Shown: piece after piece, positions 5,665 through 48,224 of the stretch
How positions within the stretch are numbered: position 1 is the stretch's first letter
How the letters are laid out: every line of letters starts with the position of its first letter
Assembly (NCBI GenBank): GCA_947487385.1
Contig: CANKWU010000007.1
Span: forward strand, 7,894-71,893
Direction of reading: 5' to 3'
DNA: 64,000 nucleotides
Origin: Spartobacteria bacterium
GTDB lineage: Bacteria > Verrucomicrobiota > Verrucomicrobiia > Chthoniobacterales > UBA6821
Notes under the pieces: generated by a model
The model's database searches: none
What the model was told of the DNA's origin: nothing
What the model saw: the letters and a program-made list of their open reading frames with translations, nothing else
Translations under genes and position numbers: made by a program

Positions 5665-6350
5665 AAACCATGAAGAGCCTTTCACTTTTTCCGCTTGTTC
5701 TTTTTTTGATTCCAGCCACCGCTCTGATGCCGAAAACACTTCTGGCTAACGCAACAAATACTCCATCAGCGACTTCCGGGACGACCACTGGGTTGGTATC
5801 CAAAGTAGCTACCAATACAGCCTTAACGAATCCACCAACTACAAATGCGCCACTCACCATGAATCCCCCCGCTCTAATCGCCCATGATCTGAGTGAAATT
5901 CATGGATCCATTTCCTTGCCAAAGGATTGGACCCTTCTTCCTGGCAAACTGCTGGAGGGAGATGTTCTTCTCGCCACCAAGGAAAATATTTCCGGGGAGA
6001 ACGATCCCTACATCACAGGCCTGAGCATGACCCTCGACCGCAACGGGGCAAAAGATTCAGGTCAGAAGGTAACGGAATACGCCATGAGTCTTGCCCGCGA
6101 AGCTCATGCCAAGGCTGGCGATGAGGCTTCTCCGCTCTGGGAGTCTCAGAGCGGATCCTTCCATGAAATTCGTTTTGATTTCCCTGTCGCGGGTGATCAA
6201 CCCCTGCAAATCACCGAGGTACTGCGCTCCTACGAAAAGACCGGAACGCTCGCCGTCATTCTCTGGCAATCCCCGAAGGAGGGAGCCGTGGCCCTTCAGG
6301 ATCTCCGGGATGCGATTCTTGCGGGCCTTATCCTTAGTGCCGAAAAATGA
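5661..6350 (+). CDS. Hypothetical secreted protein
   Basis: ATGA overlap with the upstream stop. Signal-peptide-like N-terminus (MKTMKSLSLFPLVLFLIPATA) and a T/N-rich linker. No family recognised. Confidence 0.55.
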   Translation: MKTMKSLSLFPLVLFLIPATALMPKTLLANATNTPSATSGTTTGLVSKVATNTALTNPPTTNAPLTMNPPALIAHDLSEIHGSISLPKDWTLLPGKLLEGDVLLATKENISGENDPYITGLSMTLDRNGAKDSGQKVTEYAMSLAREAHAKAGDEASPLWESQSGSFHEIRFDFPVAGDQPLQITEVLRSYEKTGTLAVILWQSPKEGAVALQDLRDAILAGLILSAEK

Positions 6351-7522
6351 GCATTTTGCGGGCCTACAAAAACCGGGGCAACCTGCCTGCGTTCCTGCTC
6401 TTTTTGTTTGCTCTGGCACTTGCCGTGGGAGGCATCGCCTTCTGGCGACTCATGCAACCCAAGCCTCTCCCACAAGTCACCCAGACACTTTCCGGTTGGT
6501 CGGCTTTGCAGGATCAAAAAGATCGTTTTTCCCATTCCTTGGCCTCAGATCGTTCACTGGAAACGATCGATCGTGAATTCACCGCTCTAGTCGAGCATGT
6601 GATCCCCTCTGTGGTCAGCATCGCTACCACGACGGCACCGGATCGCGATGTGTTGATCCGTCAATTCTTCGGCCTTAGTGGTGGTAATGTCAGCCAAAAT
6701 AGCAAGATGGGCTCCGGCATGATTGTCTCCCCGGAGGGGTACATCGTCACCAACTGGCATGTCGTCAAAGGCGCCTCCCAAGTCACAGTTCAGCTGAGTG
6801 ACGGCCGTTCTCTTCCTGCTGCGATCGCTGGCGCCGATCAACGTTCTGATATTGCTGTCCTGAAGGTTGCCACCGAAGGGCTCGAACCAATCGCCTTCGG
6901 CGACTCTGAATTGGTCAAGGTCGGCCAGATGGTCTTTGCCGTGGGCAATCCCTTCGGGCTACAGGAAACTGTAACTCAGGGGATCATCAGTGCCAAGGGA
7001 CGCCGTACCGTCAGTGAGGCCGCCAATGAGTTTTTCCAGACAAGCACCACCATTAACCCCGGCAACTCGGGCGGCCCCCTGGTCGACATCCACGGGAAGG
7101 TCATCGGCATCAACAACTTCATTATCAGCAGGAGTGGCGGCTCTGAGGGGATCGGATTTGCGATTCCCTCCAATGTGGCGCGGCGGGTCTACGAGGACAT
7201 CGTTCAGCGCGGCCGTGTTATCCATCCCTGGTTCGGAGTCGTGATGCGCCCCTTGAATGCCAGCCTTGCAAAACAGCTCGGACTACCGAATTCGAATGGA
7301 GCCTTGGTCGCCGCCACGCTTGCTGGATCGCCCGCGGAGCGGAGCGGACTTCTAGGCGGCGATGTGATTGTTTCCTTTAACGGTCACCCGATCCGTGATG
7401 GGAAAGACCTGCGCAATCGCGTGGCAGAGGCTGAAGTCGGCCCTCCCACAGGCCTAGGGGTTCTCCGTGGGGGAAGACCACTCCAGCTCAGCGTCACGAT
7501 GATTGAGGAGCCGACTGATTGA
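6347..7522 (+). CDS. HtrA/DegP-family serine protease with PDZ domain
   Basis: ATGA overlap with the upstream gene. Catalytic motifs are TNWHVV (His), DIAVLKV (Asp) and GNSGGPLVD (Ser). The C-terminal region is PDZ-like (GALVAATLAGSPAERSGLLGGDVIVSFNG). Confidence 0.9.
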   Translation: MSILRAYKNRGNLPAFLLFLFALALAVGGIAFWRLMQPKPLPQVTQTLSGWSALQDQKDRFSHSLASDRSLETIDREFTALVEHVIPSVVSIATTTAPDRDVLIRQFFGLSGGNVSQNSKMGSGMIVSPEGYIVTNWHVVKGASQVTVQLSDGRSLPAAIAGADQRSDIAVLKVATEGLEPIAFGDSELVKVGQMVFAVGNPFGLQETVTQGIISAKGRRTVSEAANEFFQTSTTINPGNSGGPLVDIHGKVIGINNFIISRSGGSEGIGFAIPSNVARRVYEDIVQRGRVIHPWFGVVMRPLNASLAKQLGLPNSNGALVAATLAGSPAERSGLLGGDVIVSFNGHPIRDGKDLRNRVAEAEVGPPTGLGVLRGGRPLQLSVTMIEEPTD

Positions 7523-40924: not shown

Positions 40925-42517
40925 TTAACCTGGAGTGTTAAGCGTAAGCGTCCTTTTAGGATCCTTGTTTAAGGATTTCAGAAAACTCTCTGCCTCGGCG
41001 ACGATTTTGAGACGCTCCTTGGCATCACGTTTTTGCCATGACCGGACAGGCATTGCGGTTCTGGGATTTCGGATCAAGAGCTCCTGATTCGTGTGGAAAA
41101 AATTCCAATAGAGTAGATTCAGCGGGCAGGCCCCTTTACCGCTCTTGATGCTGGGACTGAATGAACAGGTGCTGCAATAGTTGCTCATTTTATTGATGTA
41201 GGCACCACTGGCAGCATAGGGCTTGGTAGCCATGAATCCGCCATCCGCGTGCAAGGCCATTCCAAGAACGTTCGCAGCCATCACCCAATCATGGGCATCG
41301 ACATACATCTCGTTGAACCATCGAAGTGCTTCCTGAGGATTAACTCCTGCCATTAGTAAAAAGTTCCCCAGAACCATGAGCCGCTGGATGTGGTGATTGA
41401 AACCCCGGTCAAGCGTTTCCCGTAGGGCTGTGGACAAACAGTTCATCGAGGTCTCACCGGAGTAGAAGAACTCGGGGAGCGACCGTGTGGCGTTAAGACC
41501 ATTGACCGAGGCGTACTCAGGCATTTTTAGCCAGTAGACACCGTTCACAAACTCACGCCAGCCGATCACTTGCCTGATAAATCCCTCCACGGCATGGAGG
41601 GGTGCCTTCCCTTCTTTGAAGGCCTTCTCTGCCGCCAGAACGCACTCCATTGGTTCGAGTAAGCCGATGTTGAGCATTGGTGAGAGGATGGAATGAAAGA
41701 GATCGCCATCTTCCGACACCATCAAGTCCTGCCAGGTGCCGAATTCCGGCAAGCGAGATTCGATGAATTCGCGCAGAGCTGTAAGAGAATCCACCCTCGT
41801 GACCGGTAATGAAAAGTCAGCGGCTTTTCCCGGTGCATCCGGATAGATCGTTGCCAACTCACGAGCGACTTCCTGTGTGATTTCATCCTGTGGCAGTGGA
41901 TGTGACTTTTTCGGTCGCGGCATACCTGCCTTCTTCCAGTCGGCAAAGGTGGCTCGGTTCTCCTGATCGTAGTTCCACTGCCCGCCGAGTGGCTTGGAGG
42001 CATCATCGGCCTCCATCAGCAGTCCCGTGCGACGACGCATCTCGCGATAAAAGGTCTCCATGAGAAGGCGCTTCTTAACTCCTGCCATCTCTAGAAAATC
42101 TTCCCTGGAGCACAAAAACTGAGTCGTTGGGATGATTGTGAGGGGAACAGGCAACTTGGCTTCTAGGATCTTCAGCGCCAGCTGCTCGTCATAATTATTA
42201 GGCTGGGCAACAAGCAGGGATGCGGGCTTTTGATCCCTACAATGCACTTCTAAAACAGATCGCATATCAGCTGTATTCTCCAACCGGTGATACTCAACTT
42301 CCCACCCTTCTGCTTCCCGTTCCGCCGCGAAGTGTCGCATGGCAGAGAGCAAAAGCATGAGGCGATGACGATGGTAGGGCAACTTGCCGAAGGACTGCCT
42401 CGACTCCACAAAGAGGAGGCGGTCCCTACCCTTTCGGGCCGATGCGATGGCCGCATGATGCTCCGAGAGCTGATCCGGAAGGATCAAAATAGAGTGCTTT
42501 TCAGAAGAAATAGGCAT
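40925..42517 (-). CDS. Fe-S bacterial cryptochrome/photolyase (FeS-BCP, COG3046; (6-4) photolyase-like)
   Basis: It resembles the deoxyribodipyrimidine photolyase-related protein family. One Cys lies in NCLSTALRE, followed by CSTC-x12-C (CSTCSFSPSIKSGKGAC). That reproduces the C..C-x2-C-x12-C 4Fe-4S ligand spacing known for PhrB/CryB. Confidence 0.8.
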   Translation of the reverse strand: MPISSEKHSILILPDQLSEHHAAIASARKGRDRLLFVESRQSFGKLPYHRHRLMLLLSAMRHFAAEREAEGWEVEYHRLENTADMRSVLEVHCRDQKPASLLVAQPNNYDEQLALKILEAKLPVPLTIIPTTQFLCSREDFLEMAGVKKRLLMETFYREMRRRTGLLMEADDASKPLGGQWNYDQENRATFADWKKAGMPRPKKSHPLPQDEITQEVARELATIYPDAPGKAADFSLPVTRVDSLTALREFIESRLPEFGTWQDLMVSEDGDLFHSILSPMLNIGLLEPMECVLAAEKAFKEGKAPLHAVEGFIRQVIGWREFVNGVYWLKMPEYASVNGLNATRSLPEFFYSGETSMNCLSTALRETLDRGFNHHIQRLMVLGNFLLMAGVNPQEALRWFNEMYVDAHDWVMAANVLGMALHADGGFMATKPYAASGAYINKMSNYCSTCSFSPSIKSGKGACPLNLLYWNFFHTNQELLIRNPRTAMPVRSWQKRDAKERLKIVAEAESFLKSLNKDPKRTLTLNTPG

Positions 42518-42664: not shown

Positions 42665-43468
42665 ATGAGCAACACTCTTACGACGACGGAAGCCTATCTT
42701 AATGAAACTCTGCAGTCGGACTTAGAGACCATTGAATTACATCCCATCTTTGGATCCGTTCAATCTGAAGCCCAACTTCGCCTCTTCATGGAAAATCATG
42801 TTTTCCCGGTTTGGGATTTCATGTCTCTGCTGAAGTTTCTGCAGGCCACCCTGGCACCTGCAACCTGGCCTTGGATGCCAAGGCCTCTGGCTCACGGTGA
42901 TCTGGTGCGCTTGATCAACGATATTGTTGTCGCAGAAGAGAGCGATAAACTTCCCAAATCCCATCAAGGAGATTCTTCTCACGCCAGCCATTTTGACCTT
43001 TACCTGATAGCCATGCGTGAGGTCGGAGCCGACACGATGCCGATTACCGAGTTCCTGAGTGTCGTGGCGTCCCGAGGTCTTGATGCGGCTCTGGAGGCAC
43101 CGATGGTTTCTGATGCATCGCGGGCTTTCATGAAGGATACTTTTGCACTCCTTAGAGAGGGTAAACCCCACAAGGTGGCGGCCGCTTTCTCTTTCGGTCG
43201 TGAAAATGTCATCCCAGGCATGTTCACCTCATTGCTCGAGAAACTTGTCATCACTGAAGACCGTGCTCCGATTTTTCATTACTACCTGAAGCGTCACGCC
43301 GAACTCGATGGCGACGAACATGGTCCAGCAGCCCTTCGTTTGGTAGCCACTCTTTGCGGAGATGATCCGGTGAAGCTGGATGAGGCAGTCCATGCTGCCA
43401 AGGCGGCGCTGGCAAGCAGGGGCCGTCTCTGGGATAGCCTTCTAGAGAGACTGCTTTCCGATCACTAG
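42665..43468 (+). CDS. DUF3050 family (heme-oxygenase-like fold) protein
   Basis: IELHPIFGSVQSEAQLRLFMENHVFPVWDFMSLLKFLQ matches my recollection of DUF3050. Confidence 0.65.
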   Translation: MSNTLTTTEAYLNETLQSDLETIELHPIFGSVQSEAQLRLFMENHVFPVWDFMSLLKFLQATLAPATWPWMPRPLAHGDLVRLINDIVVAEESDKLPKSHQGDSSHASHFDLYLIAMREVGADTMPITEFLSVVASRGLDAALEAPMVSDASRAFMKDTFALLREGKPHKVAAAFSFGRENVIPGMFTSLLEKLVITEDRAPIFHYYLKRHAELDGDEHGPAALRLVATLCGDDPVKLDEAVHAAKAALASRGRLWDSLLERLLSDH

Positions 43469-43470
43469 TC

Positions 43471-43638
43471 ATGAGGATCAACGGGAAGGTGGTTAAGAAG
43501 GCCGACTTGCCGGAGAAGATCTGCCTGCACTGCAACCGCCCTTTCGCATGGCGCAAGAAATGGGATCGTGACTGGGAGTCCATCACCTGCTGCAGCGAAG
43601 CCTGCAAGGGAGAGTTAAAGCAAAGCCGTCGCCAGTGA
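43471..43638 (+). CDS. DUF2256 zinc-ribbon protein (55 aa; not in supplied ORF track)
   Basis: My own translation reads MRINGKVVKKADLPEKICLHCNRPFAWRKKWDRDWESITCCSEACKGELKQSRRQ*. The pattern C-x2-C..F.WRKKW...W....CS..C is the DUF2256 signature. The gene sits 2 nt after DUF3050 and 2 nt before the photolyase gene. Confidence 0.8.
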   Translation: MRINGKVVKKADLPEKICLHCNRPFAWRKKWDRDWESITCCSEACKGELKQSRRQ

Positions 43639-43640
43639 TC

Positions 43641-45080
43641 ATGAGTGCTCGGGAGCGGGTTCATCTGGTCTGGCTGAAGCGGGATCTGCGCCTCCACGAT
43701 CATGCCCCACTGGCCGAGGCTTCGCGGCGGTGTGCCGCAGGAGAAAAAGCCCTCGCCCTCTATGTCCACGAGACGGACTACTGGGCTACCGACAAGGCCT
43801 CGCCGGACCAATGGGGATTTGTGGCGGAATGTCTGAGGTACCTTGCGACGAATCTTGAAAAAATTAACTGCCCGCTGCTGATCGCGAAAGCTCCCTCCGC
43901 AGAGATCGTGTTGGAATCGCTCTTTGATCACTATGGGGTTGCGGAACTCCTCTGCCATCAGGAGACGGGCAACGGCTGGACCTTTGAGCGGGATAAGCGT
44001 GTGCATTGGCTTTGCAGAGAACGAGGCATCCCGGTACGGGAATTTCTCCAGAACGCCGTAGTCCGTGGCCGGAACAGACCACCCCAGAAGCCGGAGCATC
44101 AGTCTTTCTGGAGAGAGTGGATTTCGGAAGCGCAAGCCCCGACGCCTCGCTTCTGGAGTGCCCCTTCCACTCTGCCGCCGCAGTTCGTCTCCCCCGATCT
44201 CTCGACACCGGCGAGCGTCACGCGTCAACGTGGCGGCGAGGCTATGGCTCTTGGGCTACTGGAGAGTTTCCTGAATGAGCGTTGTCTTCTGCACGCCGGA
44301 TACCGTGTGGAAATGGGAAGCCCCCTGCATGCCCATGAGGCCTGCTCGCGCCTCTCCCCGCATCTTACCTGGGGGAGTCTCTCCACAAAGCGGGCGTCTC
44401 AGGACTCCATGGCACGAGAGCCGCGCCCACCTCACGGGAGCATGATGCACCGCAACAGCTTCCACCGCCGCCTCCGCTGGAGGGATCACTTTCTACAGAA
44501 ATTCGAGTCCCTGTCATGGATGGAATTCCGCTGCATTAATAGCTCAAGGGAGAGCCTGCACCGATGGGATCAGGCCGCTTACGAGCGCTGGGCCTCGGGC
44601 ATGACGGGCTATCCCTTCATCGATGCCTGTATGCGCTCACTCAATGCCACGAAATGGATCAACTTCCGCGCCCGGGCCATGCTTGTCTCGTTTGCCTCCT
44701 ATGCGCTGAATCTCGATTGGCGGCGATTCGCTCCCCATCTCGCCCGCACATTCCTCGACTACGAACCAGGCATCCATTACAGCCAGATCCAGATGCAGGC
44801 GGGCACCACCTATGGCTCCCCTCCTAGGATCTACAATCCGATGAAGCAGTCTCTGGAGAAGGATCCTGATGGGGAATTTATCCGCCATTGGGTTCCGGAG
44901 CTTCGAGACATTTCAAGCAACGCCATTCATCTTCCCCAAGATGTCAACCGACCGGGCTATCCGGCCGCAATCGTCTCACCAGGATCGCTCTGGCGCGTCA
45001 TGCGATCAAACGGCCCAAAGACTCAGAATCCTAAGACAAAGAAATCTGAGCTTCAGCCGGAGCTATTTCTTCCCGATTGA
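43641..45080 (+). CDS. Cryptochrome/photolyase-family protein (canonical domain order)
   Basis: The N-terminal alpha/beta domain reads VHLVWLKRDLRLHDHAPL. The FAD domain reads TGYPFIDACMRSLNATKWINFRARAMLVSFA...LDYEPGIHYSQIQMQAG...IYNPMKQSLEKDPDGEFIRHWVPEL. The subclass (CPD/DASH) is not assignable by eye. Confidence 0.8.
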   Translation: MSARERVHLVWLKRDLRLHDHAPLAEASRRCAAGEKALALYVHETDYWATDKASPDQWGFVAECLRYLATNLEKINCPLLIAKAPSAEIVLESLFDHYGVAELLCHQETGNGWTFERDKRVHWLCRERGIPVREFLQNAVVRGRNRPPQKPEHQSFWREWISEAQAPTPRFWSAPSTLPPQFVSPDLSTPASVTRQRGGEAMALGLLESFLNERCLLHAGYRVEMGSPLHAHEACSRLSPHLTWGSLSTKRASQDSMAREPRPPHGSMMHRNSFHRRLRWRDHFLQKFESLSWMEFRCINSSRESLHRWDQAAYERWASGMTGYPFIDACMRSLNATKWINFRARAMLVSFASYALNLDWRRFAPHLARTFLDYEPGIHYSQIQMQAGTTYGSPPRIYNPMKQSLEKDPDGEFIRHWVPELRDISSNAIHLPQDVNRPGYPAAIVSPGSLWRVMRSNGPKTQNPKTKKSELQPELFLPD

Positions 45081-45113: not shown

Positions 45114-46082
45114 ATGAGCATGGCTTCCCACTGGATCAATGCATGGCGCGGATCCCTAGCTGCCGATGCCCTGGCGATGCCTGTTCATTGGTACTACGAC
45201 ACAGGGGCCCTTCGACGTGAGTATGGTGTCGTCGACCGCTACCTTGAGCCAAAAAATCCCCATTCCGGAAGCATTCTCTGGCGTTCGGAATACCATGCAC
45301 TCAACGAGAAGGGAGATATTCTCCGCGATCAGGCCCGCTACTGGGGAGAGCGCGGGATTCATTATCATCAGTTCCTCAAGGCCGGCGAGAATACACTGAA
45401 TTACCGGCTCGCCCGGGAACTCTTCGCATTCGTGAAGGAAAGAGGTGGTTACGATCCCGATGCCTGGCTTGAGCGCTATATTACTAAAATGCTGGAGCCC
45501 GGATGGCATCGCGACACCTATGTGGAGGAGTATCACCGTGCCTTCTTCACTAGGTACGCGCAGGGTAAGAAGCCAAGAAAATGCGGAATCAGCGATGAGC
45601 ATATCGGGGGGCTAGCCACCGTACCTGCTCTTTGCGCGGCGCTATGCTCCTTGGAACAGGGGATCGAGCTTTCGGAATTGAGGGTGATCGTGAAAGAGCA
45701 TGTCGGGTTAACTCATGCCCATGCCAATGTACTACGTGCAGCAGATACCCTAGTACGCCTTCTCTGGAAGGTAACTGAAGGGATGGAAGTTCACGAGGCG
45801 ATCCGCCTTGAGGGCGGGGACTGGATCTCAGGTAAGAAATCAGATTCATGGCTCCACCAACCTGACGAGTATGTCGTCGGATCCCGCTTCAGCCCCGCCT
45901 GCTACATCGCCGATGCAATGCCTGCATCGCTCTATCTGGTCTGGAAATATTCGCGCGACTTCTCGGCAGGTATTATCGCCAACGCTATGGTCGGAGGTGA
46001 CAGCTGCCACCGCGGGGCCGTGGTAGGCAGCATCCTCGGGGCAGCTAACGGAGTGCCAGAACGGTTTTTGCTCACCCTATAA
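45114..46082 (+). CDS. ADP-ribosylglycohydrolase-family protein
   Basis: LAADALAMPVHWYY lies near the N-terminus and GGDSCHRGAVVGSILGAANG near the C-terminus. These correspond to the two metal-site regions of the ARH/DraG fold. Confidence 0.7.
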   Translation: MSMASHWINAWRGSLAADALAMPVHWYYDTGALRREYGVVDRYLEPKNPHSGSILWRSEYHALNEKGDILRDQARYWGERGIHYHQFLKAGENTLNYRLARELFAFVKERGGYDPDAWLERYITKMLEPGWHRDTYVEEYHRAFFTRYAQGKKPRKCGISDEHIGGLATVPALCAALCSLEQGIELSELRVIVKEHVGLTHAHANVLRAADTLVRLLWKVTEGMEVHEAIRLEGGDWISGKKSDSWLHQPDEYVVGSRFSPACYIADAMPASLYLVWKYSRDFSAGIIANAMVGGDSCHRGAVVGSILGAANGVPERFLLTL

Positions 46083-46100: not shown

Positions 46101-47303
46101 ATGAATCCAACGCGTGAGGAGGGACTGCAAACGCTCGAGCGTTTTTTACCCCATGCCGGTATCAGCTATAGAGAGAGGCGTAATTTTGTCCCCGGAGTTG
46201 TTTCGGGGCTTTCCCCCTACGTGCGTCACCGGTTGATCACGGAAGCTGAAGTCGTCGGAGCAGTTCTTCAAAAGCATTCTTTTCAAGAAGCCGAGAAATT
46301 CATCCAGGAAATCTGCTGGCGTACCTATTGGAAGGGATGGCTGGAGATGAGGCCCTCGGTTTGGTCGGAGTATCTTGAGGCACTTCAAACGCTTAAAATC
46401 CAAATGCAAGAGGAGCCTGATGTGAATGATCGAGTCCAATCAGCCGAAAGTGGTGTTACAGGGATTGGTTGCTTTGATGACTGGGCCAACGCACTCCGTG
46501 AGACCGGATATCTTCACAACCATGTCAGGATGTGGTTTGCGAGCATCTGGGTTCATACGCTGCGTCTGCCATGGCAACTGGGAGCTGACTTCTTTATGAG
46601 GCACCTGCTGGACGGAGACCCAGCTTCCAATACCCTCTCGTGGCGCTGGGTCTGCGGACTGCAGACGCAGGGAAAGGTCTATGTGGCGACTGCCGAGAAT
46701 ATCGAGCGCTTCACGGATGGGCGTTATACTCCGCGCGGGCTTCTGGCTCAGGAAGCTCCGATGATGAGGGAGTCTTTCACAAATCACCCGCCACTCCCAC
46801 TGGCTCATCCCGATCAGCATGTTTCGGGTGAAAAAACTCTTCTGCTCATCACTGAGGAGGATCTCCACCCGGAGGATTGGGGTATTCCTCGTAGCGATGT
46901 GTTGGGAATCGTTCTTCTCGATTCGGCTGAGGCATATCCCGGGATCGCAGCGCTCCCCGTGGGATGGAAGAGCCACGCGCTCGAGGGAGCTGCCGCACGA
47001 TTGGCCGGTGAATTTCAGTGCCCTATCACGTGCCTCCAGAGTGATAAGGAATCACTATCCGCTAAACTGCGCACCCTTCTGCAGGAGTATGGAGCAGGCT
47101 GCTACAGCACCATGACTCCTCCCGTTGGCCCGACACTCAGCCTCATTGATCCGGTGCTTTCGGAACTGGTGAAGGAGGGTGTTACTGTCAGAAGACTGCG
47201 GCGTTCTTGGGATGACGCATTCTGGCCGCACGCGACCCATGGGTTTTTTAAGTTGAAGGAGCGGATTCCATCCGTTCTGAAGCAGCTGTCATTGATCCCT
47301 TGA
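46101..47303 (+). CDS. Photolyase-like protein with FAD-binding domain at the N-terminus (possible permuted CPF)
   Basis: LSPYVRHRLIT, TGYLHNHVRMWFASIW and LLDGDPASNTLSWRWVCG all lie in the first ~200 aa. The C-terminal ~185 aa read like a photolyase alpha/beta domain (KTLLLITEEDLHPEDW...). Confidence 0.65.
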   Translation: MNPTREEGLQTLERFLPHAGISYRERRNFVPGVVSGLSPYVRHRLITEAEVVGAVLQKHSFQEAEKFIQEICWRTYWKGWLEMRPSVWSEYLEALQTLKIQMQEEPDVNDRVQSAESGVTGIGCFDDWANALRETGYLHNHVRMWFASIWVHTLRLPWQLGADFFMRHLLDGDPASNTLSWRWVCGLQTQGKVYVATAENIERFTDGRYTPRGLLAQEAPMMRESFTNHPPLPLAHPDQHVSGEKTLLLITEEDLHPEDWGIPRSDVLGIVLLDSAEAYPGIAALPVGWKSHALEGAAARLAGEFQCPITCLQSDKESLSAKLRTLLQEYGAGCYSTMTPPVGPTLSLIDPVLSELVKEGVTVRRLRRSWDDAFWPHATHGFFKLKERIPSVLKQLSLIP

Positions 47304-47339: not shown

Positions 47340-47588
47340 TCACTCCAAGTCCTCATGATTCGAGGGCTTCAAACGGCGCTCCAGAAGCTTCCGGTGTTTT
47401 GTCACCCGGCCGCCAACTCGTTTTCTCCACATGGTAAAACTGGATGGCTTAAGTTCGCGGCGCATGATGTCGATCACCTCATGCTCTGCAAGACCAGTGC
47501 GTGTTTTTATTTCCTCAAACGTGGTTCGATCTTCCCACGCCAGACGAATCACCAAAGAAATCTGATCGCTTTGAATTTTTCCCTTCAT
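47340..47588 (-). CDS. TIGR03643/DUF2805 family small protein (photolyase-associated)
   Basis: RLAWEDRTTFEEIKTRTGLAEHEVIDIMRRELKPSSFTMWRKRVGGRVTKH matches the family consensus as I recall it. Confidence 0.7.
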   Translation of the reverse strand: MKGKIQSDQISLVIRLAWEDRTTFEEIKTRTGLAEHEVIDIMRRELKPSSFTMWRKRVGGRVTKHRKLLERRLKPSNHEDLE

Positions 47589-47597
47589 GGCGTGTGA

Positions 47598-48224
47598 TCA
47601 TCGGATCCCAATGAATTTACGGAAGGTGAGGTTGATCCGGGGCGTAGAGATTTTCTTGGTCTTGGGCATGGTATGCTCCCAGTGATGCTGGGTGGCTCCC
47701 TTCATCACCAGCAGGCTGCCATCTTCAAGAAGCACGGAAACGACCTCCTTGGACTTGCGGTGTTTCAGTTTAAAGATCCTTTCCGCCCCAAGGCTCACGG
47801 AGGCAATGAGAGGATTCTCGCCTAGGGTCTTTTCATCATCGCTGTGCCATCCCATTCCCTCGGAGCCGTCATGGTAAAGATTCAGCAGGCAAGAGTTGAA
47901 CTGGTGGCCGCACTCGCTCTCGACGCGCTCCTTGATCGTCACAAGAGCAGGGGTCCATGGTGCCGCGACTTTGCTTGTGCCGGAATAGGAGTAGGTGAAC
48001 TCTCCATCCCCCATCCAGGCCACTTTCCGGGAGAGGATCCTTTTCTGTCCAAAGAGGATCACCTCGTCCTGCTGCCAAGGGATCCCTGTTAGGAGCTCTT
48101 CAAAAAGACGGGACGACTCCCCCGCCCCAAAGAGCGAGGGGACATATTCGACGATCCCATCATAAGGAAGATAAGGAAGAAGTTGCCCGTTATTCACTGG
48201 CACAGAGGCCCCTGCTGGAGTCAC
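47598..48224 (-). CDS. alkB: Alpha-ketoglutarate/Fe(II)-dependent dioxygenase AlkB
   Basis: NLYHDGSEGMGWHSDDE (HxD), QHHWEH (distal His) and RINLTFRK (2OG Arg). Confidence 0.85.
   Translation of the reverse strand: MTPAGASVPVNNGQLLPYLPYDGIVEYVPSLFGAGESSRLFEELLTGIPWQQDEVILFGQKRILSRKVAWMGDGEFTYSYSGTSKVAAPWTPALVTIKERVESECGHQFNSCLLNLYHDGSEGMGWHSDDEKTLGENPLIASVSLGAERIFKLKHRKSKEVVSVLLEDGSLLVMKGATQHHWEHTMPKTKKISTPRINLTFRKFIGIR

Follow-up and report, generated by a model that had tools for sequence, protein, structure and literature searches.

The gene at positions 46101–47303 on the + strand of the DNA analysed here, a 64,000-nucleotide stretch from a Spartobacteria bacterium (GenBank assembly GCA_947487385.1, contig CANKWU010000007.1, positions 7,894 to 71,893; the whole stretch is referred to as the window), raises the question of whether a cryptochrome/photolyase family (CPF) member can carry its two domains in inverted order and, if so, whether such an architecture is new. 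An initial annotation of the sequence proposed that the flavin adenine dinucleotide (FAD)-binding domain comes first and the alpha/beta domain last, regarded the product, should the resemblance be real, as a circularly permuted CPF member and knew of no characterised example. On the basis of the present analysis, the inverted domain order is real, but the architecture belongs to a family that was described in 2020–2021. The whole of the evidence is best explained, in our view with high probability, by a NewPHL photolyase (a class also named SPL; here subgroup-A-like) of a verrucomicrobial, Spartobacteria-like genome.

The open reading frame (ORF) starts with ATG and encodes 400 amino acids plus a stop codon. 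Every motif string quoted in the initial annotation was located in this product where it had been placed: LSPYVRHRLIT at residues 37–47, TGYLHNHVRMWFASIW at 135–150, LLDGDPASNTLSWRWVCG at 169–186, GEKTLLLITEEDL at 243–255, VLGIVLLDS at 267–275, LLQEYGAGCYSTM at 326–338 and LVKEGVTVRRLRRSWDDAFWPH at 356–377. The start of the neighbouring CPF protein (43635–45080), ...VHLVWLKRDLRLHDHAPL, was verified as well.

Residues 1–204 (46101..46712, + strand) constitute an all-alpha FAD-binding catalytic domain, as seen in Pfam, in the alignment with Escherichia coli photolyase (1DNP) and in an AlphaFold2 (AF2) model. FAD_binding_7, the only Pfam domain found, covers residues 67–195 and matches profile positions 1–127 of 203 (E=6e-23). 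Residues 2–195 correspond to positions ~205–396 of the NCBIfam full-length photolyase models, and residues 63–194 to positions 267–395 of 1DNP (E=1.4e-14). Because all three alignments place it there, the FAD-binding domain starts at the very N-terminus of the protein, and the first half of the proposed domain order is borne out by matches far beyond chance. In the AF2 model residues 5–204 are all-helical, and a Foldseek search with the full model retrieved class I photolyases (1dnp, 1owm and 1iqr) over ~220–270 aligned columns with 24–26% identity.

The alignment with 1DNP also identified the residues of the active site. The pocket for the cyclobutane pyrimidine dimer (CPD) is made up of E70, W73, N140, M144 and W183 (E274, W277, N341, M345 and W384 in 1DNP), and further equivalent positions are R143 (R344), W158 (W359), D171 (D372), D173 (D374), N177 (N378) and W181 (W382). 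Y23 and R27, nearer the N-terminus and outside the 1DNP alignment, are also present. All of these residues were invariant in 199 of 199 family sequences, except for M144, which was kept in 197. The distal W306 of 1DNP is replaced by M102, a position occupied by M, L, V or F across the family, so that W181 and W158 form a tryptophan dyad. A377 and G381 of 1DNP are both serine here (S176 and S180). From these equivalences and their conservation it follows that the protein has a complete CPD-photolyase active site together with a two-tryptophan photoreduction chain.

A family with this arrangement is known from two founding papers. Emmerich et al. [quoted passage not shown] Two members, DsNewPHL from Dinoroseobacter shibae and MmNewPHL from Methylobacterium mesophilicum, bind FAD alone, and their CPD repair is confined to single-stranded DNA (PMC7736829). 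Xu et al. (2021) independently named the same class SPL (short photolyase-like); in their account the alpha/beta domain is missing and the 'C-terminal extensions' resisted modelling. Their protein RfSPL repairs CPDs and binds both FAD and an Fe-S cluster (PMC8476157). The three purified NewPHL/SPL members are thus FAD-containing CPD photolyases that repair in vitro, and an 'inverted topology' is ascribed to the family in so many words (PMC7736829, PMC8476157). A 2026 paper summarises NewPHLs/SPLs as having 'an inverted domain topology'. Thus, the view that no example had been characterised has to be given up.

Several sequence features place the protein in this family. Residues E81, W84, N151, W169, W192 and W194 of DsNewPHL map onto it at a constant offset of 11, and over residues 3–398 it is 46% identical to a protein encoded at L074, the one locus that matched in the genome of Ruegeria (Silicibacter) lacuscaerulensis ITI-1157; this species supplies RlSPL, the representative of SPL subgroup A (PMC8476157). 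The [4Fe-4S] ligands of RfSPL are C155, C239, C242 and C248 (PMC8476157). By a numbering offset of 31 (N171=N140, M175=M144, W214=W183), which is not a direct alignment, these positions correspond to C124, R208, P211 and Q217, of which the first alone is Cys. With three of the four positions not Cys, the Fe-S-containing SPL subgroups C and Ac were ruled out. Given the missing cysteines and the identity to the protein from R. lacuscaerulensis, subgroup A is where it belongs. A point that weighs against the family assignment is that the link to NewPHL/SPL was made through corresponding residue numbers, shared motifs and the resemblance to the Ruegeria protein. There is no solved structure of the NewPHL family among the PDB entries searched, where the best full-length match has 26% identity.

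It should be noted that C124 (window positions 46470–46472), which matches Cys155 of RfSPL by the same offset, is Cys in 156 of the 199 family sequences; at the places of the other three ligands stand R208, P211 and a residue that varies. Judged by this pattern, an Fe-S-binding ancestor may have left C124 behind as a vestige.

The second half of the proposed domain order concerns the Z-domain. Its core, residues 246–366 (46836..47198, + strand), is predicted to be a five-stranded alpha/beta domain on the basis of AF2, Foldseek and hhalign. The full-length model, built from a 51-sequence alignment, has a mean predicted local distance difference test score (pLDDT) of 90.6 and a predicted template modelling score of 0.90. 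In it, strands at residues 246–250, 267–274, 309–313, 334–338 and 362–366 alternate with helices at 284–305, 316–330 and 344–358, and a loop is found where the canonical helix alpha1 would sit. A model of the isolated residues 238–400 shows the same elements (pLDDT 83.5).

When the isolated Z-domain model was compared with 350,542 PDB chains by Foldseek, ranks 1–4 were all occupied by the iron-sulfur (6-4) photolyase PhrB (5KCM, 4DJA, 6DD6 and 5LFA), with E values of 3e-4 to 6e-3, a probability of 1.0, template modelling (TM) scores of 0.57–0.58 and root-mean-square deviations (rmsd) of 3.2–3.7 Å over 133–135 columns at 17–19% identity. The next matches were CRY1/CRY2 of Arabidopsis and maize, class II photolyase 3UMV and class III photolyase 4U63; CPF matches overall had TM scores of 0.47–0.58 and rmsd of 3.2–5.5 Å over ~130–155 columns. 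Matches outside the CPF, including cyclodipeptide synthases, universal stress proteins, KaiC, DnaB and others, mostly had lower TM scores (0.16–0.48) and rmsd mostly above 5 Å. The CPF match would fall on the N-terminal domain, the sole alpha/beta domain in these proteins, whose size of ~130 residues fits the alignment length. On the evidence of the predicted model, the Z-domain has the photolyase alpha/beta fold, and with PhrB, CRY1/CRY2 and the class II/III photolyases as the best PDB matches of the isolated domain, the placement of an alpha/beta domain at the end of the protein was upheld.

Common descent of the Z-domain with the CPF alpha/beta domain is a stronger claim than shared fold, and we examined it with profile comparisons. 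The hhalign profiles represented the neighbouring canonical CPF family (116 sequences) and the neighbouring FeS-BCP family (115 diverse representatives, drawn from a search with 4794 representative homologues), and the NewPHL profiles were enlarged with proteins from species-representative genome loci. Against the CPF family, the full NewPHL profile gave two matches, residues 5–196 to positions 202–394 (E=2e-7) and residues 279–366 to positions 52–137 (E=7e-3); this crossed pattern of the profile alignments is that expected from domain-order inversion. The Z-domain profile alone matched the CPF family with E=5.5e-3, which improved to 8e-4 with a more diverse profile, and the FeS-BCP family with E=1.3e-3, where positions 7–129 aligned with 6–129 from strand 1 through strand 5. 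In both families the best match anywhere in the 481- or 530-column profile was the alpha/beta domain, in register. With single sequences of the two neighbouring CPF proteins in place of families, the Z-domain profile gave one irrelevant match (E=0.5) and one that was in register and weak (E=0.072).

Several results weigh against this homology. Pfam applied to residues 238–400 alone found no DNA_photolyase or DPRP match and only a spurious UBA_6 (E=0.087), so that of the separate check of the two halves suggested in the initial annotation, the N-terminal half gave the FAD domain and the C-terminal half gave no DNA_photolyase match. A hidden Markov model of 28 Z-domains found no match at E<=10 among all PDB sequences. 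The hhalign probabilities for the Z-domain were only 19–25%, and its native score of 27.0 compares with a maximum of 26.1 among 60 block-shuffled profiles (the reversed profile scored 12.6); two canonical alpha/beta domains matched each other clearly more strongly (E=1e-5, score 45). In addition, the Foldseek output gives no target residue coordinates, so that the position of the match on the N-terminal domain is one that we infer.

These results leave room for an alternative that we consider possible but the less probable one, namely that the protein ends in a Rossmann-like or HUP-class domain of unrelated origin (for example, one related to universal stress proteins) whose likeness to the photolyase domain is convergent. 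The domain would have been recruited independently, or have grown from a short C-terminal extension, and NewPHL would then derive from a single-domain ancestor. The lack of any Pfam or PDB sequence match for residues 238–400, hhalign probabilities of at most 25% with a score barely above the shuffled controls, the presence of universal stress proteins and other nucleotide-binding alpha/beta folds in the Foldseek list and the loop that replaces helix alpha1 all agree with convergence. So do statements in the founding literature: some NewPHL members carry only ~53 residues after the catalytic domain, and an 'early domain swapping event' was the less favoured of two evolutionary scenarios, the minimal-ancestor scenario being preferred (PMC7736829). 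However, the four best matches among the PDB chains and most of those with TM>=0.5 were CPF proteins, whereas universal stress proteins and other folds reached TM scores of 0.36–0.48 with mostly larger rmsd. Two independent canonical families were both best matched in register, the FeS-BCP family over all five strands, and the signal rose rather than faded with profile diversity. Moreover, according to the legend of figure 5 in the same paper, the first 125 residues of the Z-domain give a contact map that resembles the antenna domain (PMC7736829). Its authors also state that the order of secondary-structure elements predicted for the Z-domain mismatches the Rossmann fold (PMC7736829).

Taken together, common descent of the Z-domain with the CPF alpha/beta domain appears likely, although it is not proven at the sequence level. 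The resemblance of the C-terminal half claimed in the initial annotation therefore stands as a match of fold, while homology at the sequence level is weak, with the Pfam and PDB profile searches empty.

Whether the protein is a circular permutation in the strict sense depends on what joins and follows the two domains. The inter-domain linker, residues 205–245 (46713..46835, + strand), is predicted coil: DSSP assigned no regular secondary structure to it in the AF2 model, the mean pLDDT of residues 221–230 is 71, and the segment is poorly conserved in the alignment. The C-terminal tail, residues 367–400 (47199..47300, + strand), is conserved and predicted by AF2 to contain two helices (369–380 and 382–397) with the Trp and GFF motif. 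Its pattern RRxWDxxFWPHATHGFFxxKExIP is the best-conserved stretch of the C-terminal region, with W375 found in 197, G381 in 196, F382 in 193 and F383 in 195 of 199 sequences. The pLDDT of the tail is 76–84 in the full-length model and 50–69 in the isolated domain, a difference between models which may mean that the tail is packed against the catalytic domain. No counterpart of residues 360–400 was found in canonical CPF profiles by hhalign (E~0.2), and the idea that the tail represents the canonical C-terminal helices or the FTPF linker motif was dropped on the same value.

In canonical proteins the helical domain runs ~75 residues past the last aligned position (1DNP 395 of 471), and in place of this last part the protein studied here has only one short helix and the 40-residue coil. 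The canonical inter-domain linker is not present at its N-terminus either. Because neither of these segments has a counterpart, the protein is not a strict circular permutation; it is a domain-order inversion with losses. Of the proposed circular permutation, the inverted order was retained, whereas the loss of segments (the Pfam match ends at 127 of 203) and a tail without counterpart speak against a clean permutation.

With regard to evolution, we lean slightly towards the view that the Z-domain is a true homologue of the antenna domain and that NewPHL/SPL proteins are two-domain photolyases that arose by inversion of the domain order, both domains being ancestral. If this is true, they are not the single-domain 'minimal ancestors' that both founding papers favour, the rooting of the photolyase/cryptochrome family tree changes, and antenna or nucleotide binding by some NewPHL Z-domains becomes an open question again. 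In the collection of papers searched, no published AlphaFold-based assignment of the Z-domain was found. The sole addition of this work to the literature is a modest one: fold-level evidence, from predicted models, that the Z-domain is a photolyase-type alpha/beta domain. Such a fold favours the 'domain swapping' scenario and weakens the argument for a single-domain ancestor.

The architecture would be of little interest if the ORF were an artefact, either a mis-assembled or frame-shifted fusion or a canonical photolyase truncated by the gene call. We regard this as extremely improbable. The upstream ADP-ribosylglycohydrolase ORF does lie in the same reading frame, one stop codon and 18 nt before the ATG; in relatives (L005), the two genes are in different frames and share 4 nt, and a fusion is not indicated. 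A search of a 5.8-billion-protein collection gave at least 8000 matches, every one at E<=1e-5. In the best 120 of these, PF03441 was the sole precomputed Pfam domain, and most were 390–440 amino acids long and spanned the whole query, the exceptions being a few shorter entries with partial coverage. The alignment of 51 sequences, with identities down to 50%, extends over the whole length including the C-terminal part, and the AF2 model is confident along the entire chain. The gene was found with the same neighbours on independent contigs (ENA, JGI, Logan and NCBI), and at least 596 NewPHL loci were confirmed in a scan of species-representative genomes. A fusion or assembly artefact, which the initial annotation had named as a possible refutation, was ruled out by these conservation data, the domain order being conserved among homologues.

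The closest relative among the matches listed came from the metagenome-assembled genome (MAG) of an uncultured Spartobacteria member (Verrucomicrobiota; 80% identity), and the remaining listed loci were mostly from Alphaproteobacteria, with 43–50% identity to the NewPHL of the window. In this closest ortholog (L009, positions 6001–7200; CAIOJL010000082.1) codon 134 is TAG, where the window has GAG; this may reflect either a pseudogene or a sequencing error of the MAG.

At present, relatives of this gene carry the labels 'deoxyribodipyrimidine photo-lyase', 'hypothetical protein' or 'FAD-binding domain-containing protein'. The gene and its relatives, at least 8000 in number, should be named NewPHL/SPL-type photolyases.

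Five + strand genes lie close together, separated by 2, -4, 33 and 18 nt, and NewPHL is the last of them. The first of the operon (42665..43468) encodes a DUF3050 (HamA_HO-like) protein (Pfam DUF3050, E=1e-82). It is followed by a 55-amino-acid DUF2256 ORF with a Cys-rich motif (43471..43638; DUF2256, E=8e-19), which fell below the length required for the default ORF list; 4 nt of it are shared with the downstream CPF gene at the GTG start of that gene. This third gene (43635..45080) encodes a CPF protein of canonical domain order, NewCRY/DASH-like, with Pfam DNA_photolyase and FAD_binding_7. By hhalign, it has L and F at the repair positions E274 and N341, and FLDYEPGIHYSQIQMQ replaces the DGD..N...WxW flavin/substrate motif; judged by its sequence, it fits the description of NewCRY (PMC7736829). 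The fourth gene (45114..46082) encodes an ADP-ribosylglycohydrolase (Pfam ADP_ribosyl_GH, E=4e-38) and ends 18 nt before NewPHL. Outside the operon, a prokaryotic (6-4) photolyase of the FeS-BCP/DPRP family (40925..42517, - strand; Pfam DPRP, E=4e-61) is encoded divergently on the upstream side, and DUF2805 and an AlkB-like dioxygenase (47340–48224, - strand) converge from downstream. No class I CPD photolyase was found in the window.

The cluster order recurs in relatives with 97%, 65% and 59% identity (L001–L006). In relatives at all three levels of identity, the ADP-ribosylglycohydrolase gene lies directly 5' of NewPHL; the DUF3050 and DUF2256 genes are also present in L003 and L006, and the (6-4) photolyase gene holds the same position in L005 and L006. 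It has been reported that SPL and FeS-BCP genes are predicted to lie in one operon in some organisms (PMC8476157). This conserved verrucomicrobial operon, with its (6-4) photolyase, NewCRY-type protein, ADP-ribosylglycohydrolase and NewPHL, is a candidate for a coordinated light-dependent repair module.

The arrangement did not recur in a homologue with 51% identity. There (L007, 4605–6469, and L008, 348–2212), a glutathione peroxidase gene lies upstream and shares 4 nt with the NewPHL gene; no other CPF gene is nearby, and the context is of the oxidative-stress type.

The function that these data point to is light-dependent repair. By homology to characterised members, the N-terminal helical domain would bind FAD. 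Light-excited FADH- would donate an electron to the CPD held in the pocket described above, the CPD would split and the electron would return; light would also drive the re-reduction of oxidised flavin, with the dyad (W181 to W158) standing in for the usual triad. If DsNewPHL and MmNewPHL are a guide, the protein probably acts on the CPD in single-stranded DNA, with FAD as the sole chromophore. [quoted passage not shown]

A regulatory function would be an alternative, in which the protein would work as a flavin-based photoreceptor or regulator, in other words as a bacterial cryptochrome, and signal through its C-terminal domain instead of repairing DNA, perhaps with the neighbouring NewCRY-like protein and the ADP-ribosylglycohydrolase as partners. 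In its favour, Xu et al. asked whether SPLs with C-terminal extensions act as cryptochromes (PMC8476157), and the gene shares its operon with a CPF gene lacking the repair residues and with an ADP-ribosylglycohydrolase of signalling type. We nevertheless consider it improbable: all CPD-binding and catalytic residues are present with the near-complete conservation described above, the three purified family members repaired CPDs in vitro, and the surrounding genes include the (6-4) photolyase and the AlkB-like repair dioxygenase. CPD repair thus remains the function we favour for this NewPHL.

Compared with the NewPHL proteins as defined in PMC7736829, the protein of the window shares the N-terminal FAD domain without an N-terminal antenna domain, the length of ~400 amino acids, the ~150-amino-acid Z-domain with W375 and GFF at 381–383, the CPD-repair residues and the tryptophan dyad, and its gene likewise co-occurs with those of a bacterial (6-4) photolyase and a NewCRY-type CPF protein. 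The difference lies in the host, which is verrucomicrobial here and alphaproteobacterial for the characterised members. Verrucomicrobia are absent from the phyla listed for 187 SPL-bearing genomes (PMC8476157). As in SPL subgroup A, the four-cysteine set is lacking, whereas a [4Fe-4S] cluster and the four cysteines are found in RfSPL, which belongs to subgroup Ac, and in subgroup C; of the four, our protein has only the first, as C124.

Class I CPD photolyases (1DNP; 1TEZ and 1OWL from Synechococcus) are the closest solved relatives of the catalytic domain and have the same FAD-binding and CPD-binding residues. In contrast to the NewPHL of the window, they have the alpha/beta domain first and the helical domain second, a tryptophan triad, a long inter-domain linker and ~75 further C-terminal residues, and they repair double-stranded DNA and bind an antenna chromophore. 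For the Z-domain, the best structural match is PhrB, and the hhalign alignment with the FeS-BCP family is collinear from strand 1 to strand 5. At strand 1, LLLITEEDL of the Z-domain and ILILPDQL of the neighbouring FeS-BCP both consist of a hydrophobic strand followed by an acidic-x-L segment. The domain of PhrB differs in being N-terminal and in binding a 6,7-dimethyl-8-ribityllumazine antenna; the sequence similarity of the Z-domain to it is marginal (E~1e-3), and the Z-domain has the loop at alpha1. Finally, Cry-DASH is the probable functional analogue, performing CPD repair in single-stranded DNA, but it has the canonical domain order and a methenyltetrahydrofolate antenna and forms a separate clade. 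NewPHL and DASH are reported almost never to co-occur (PMC7736829).

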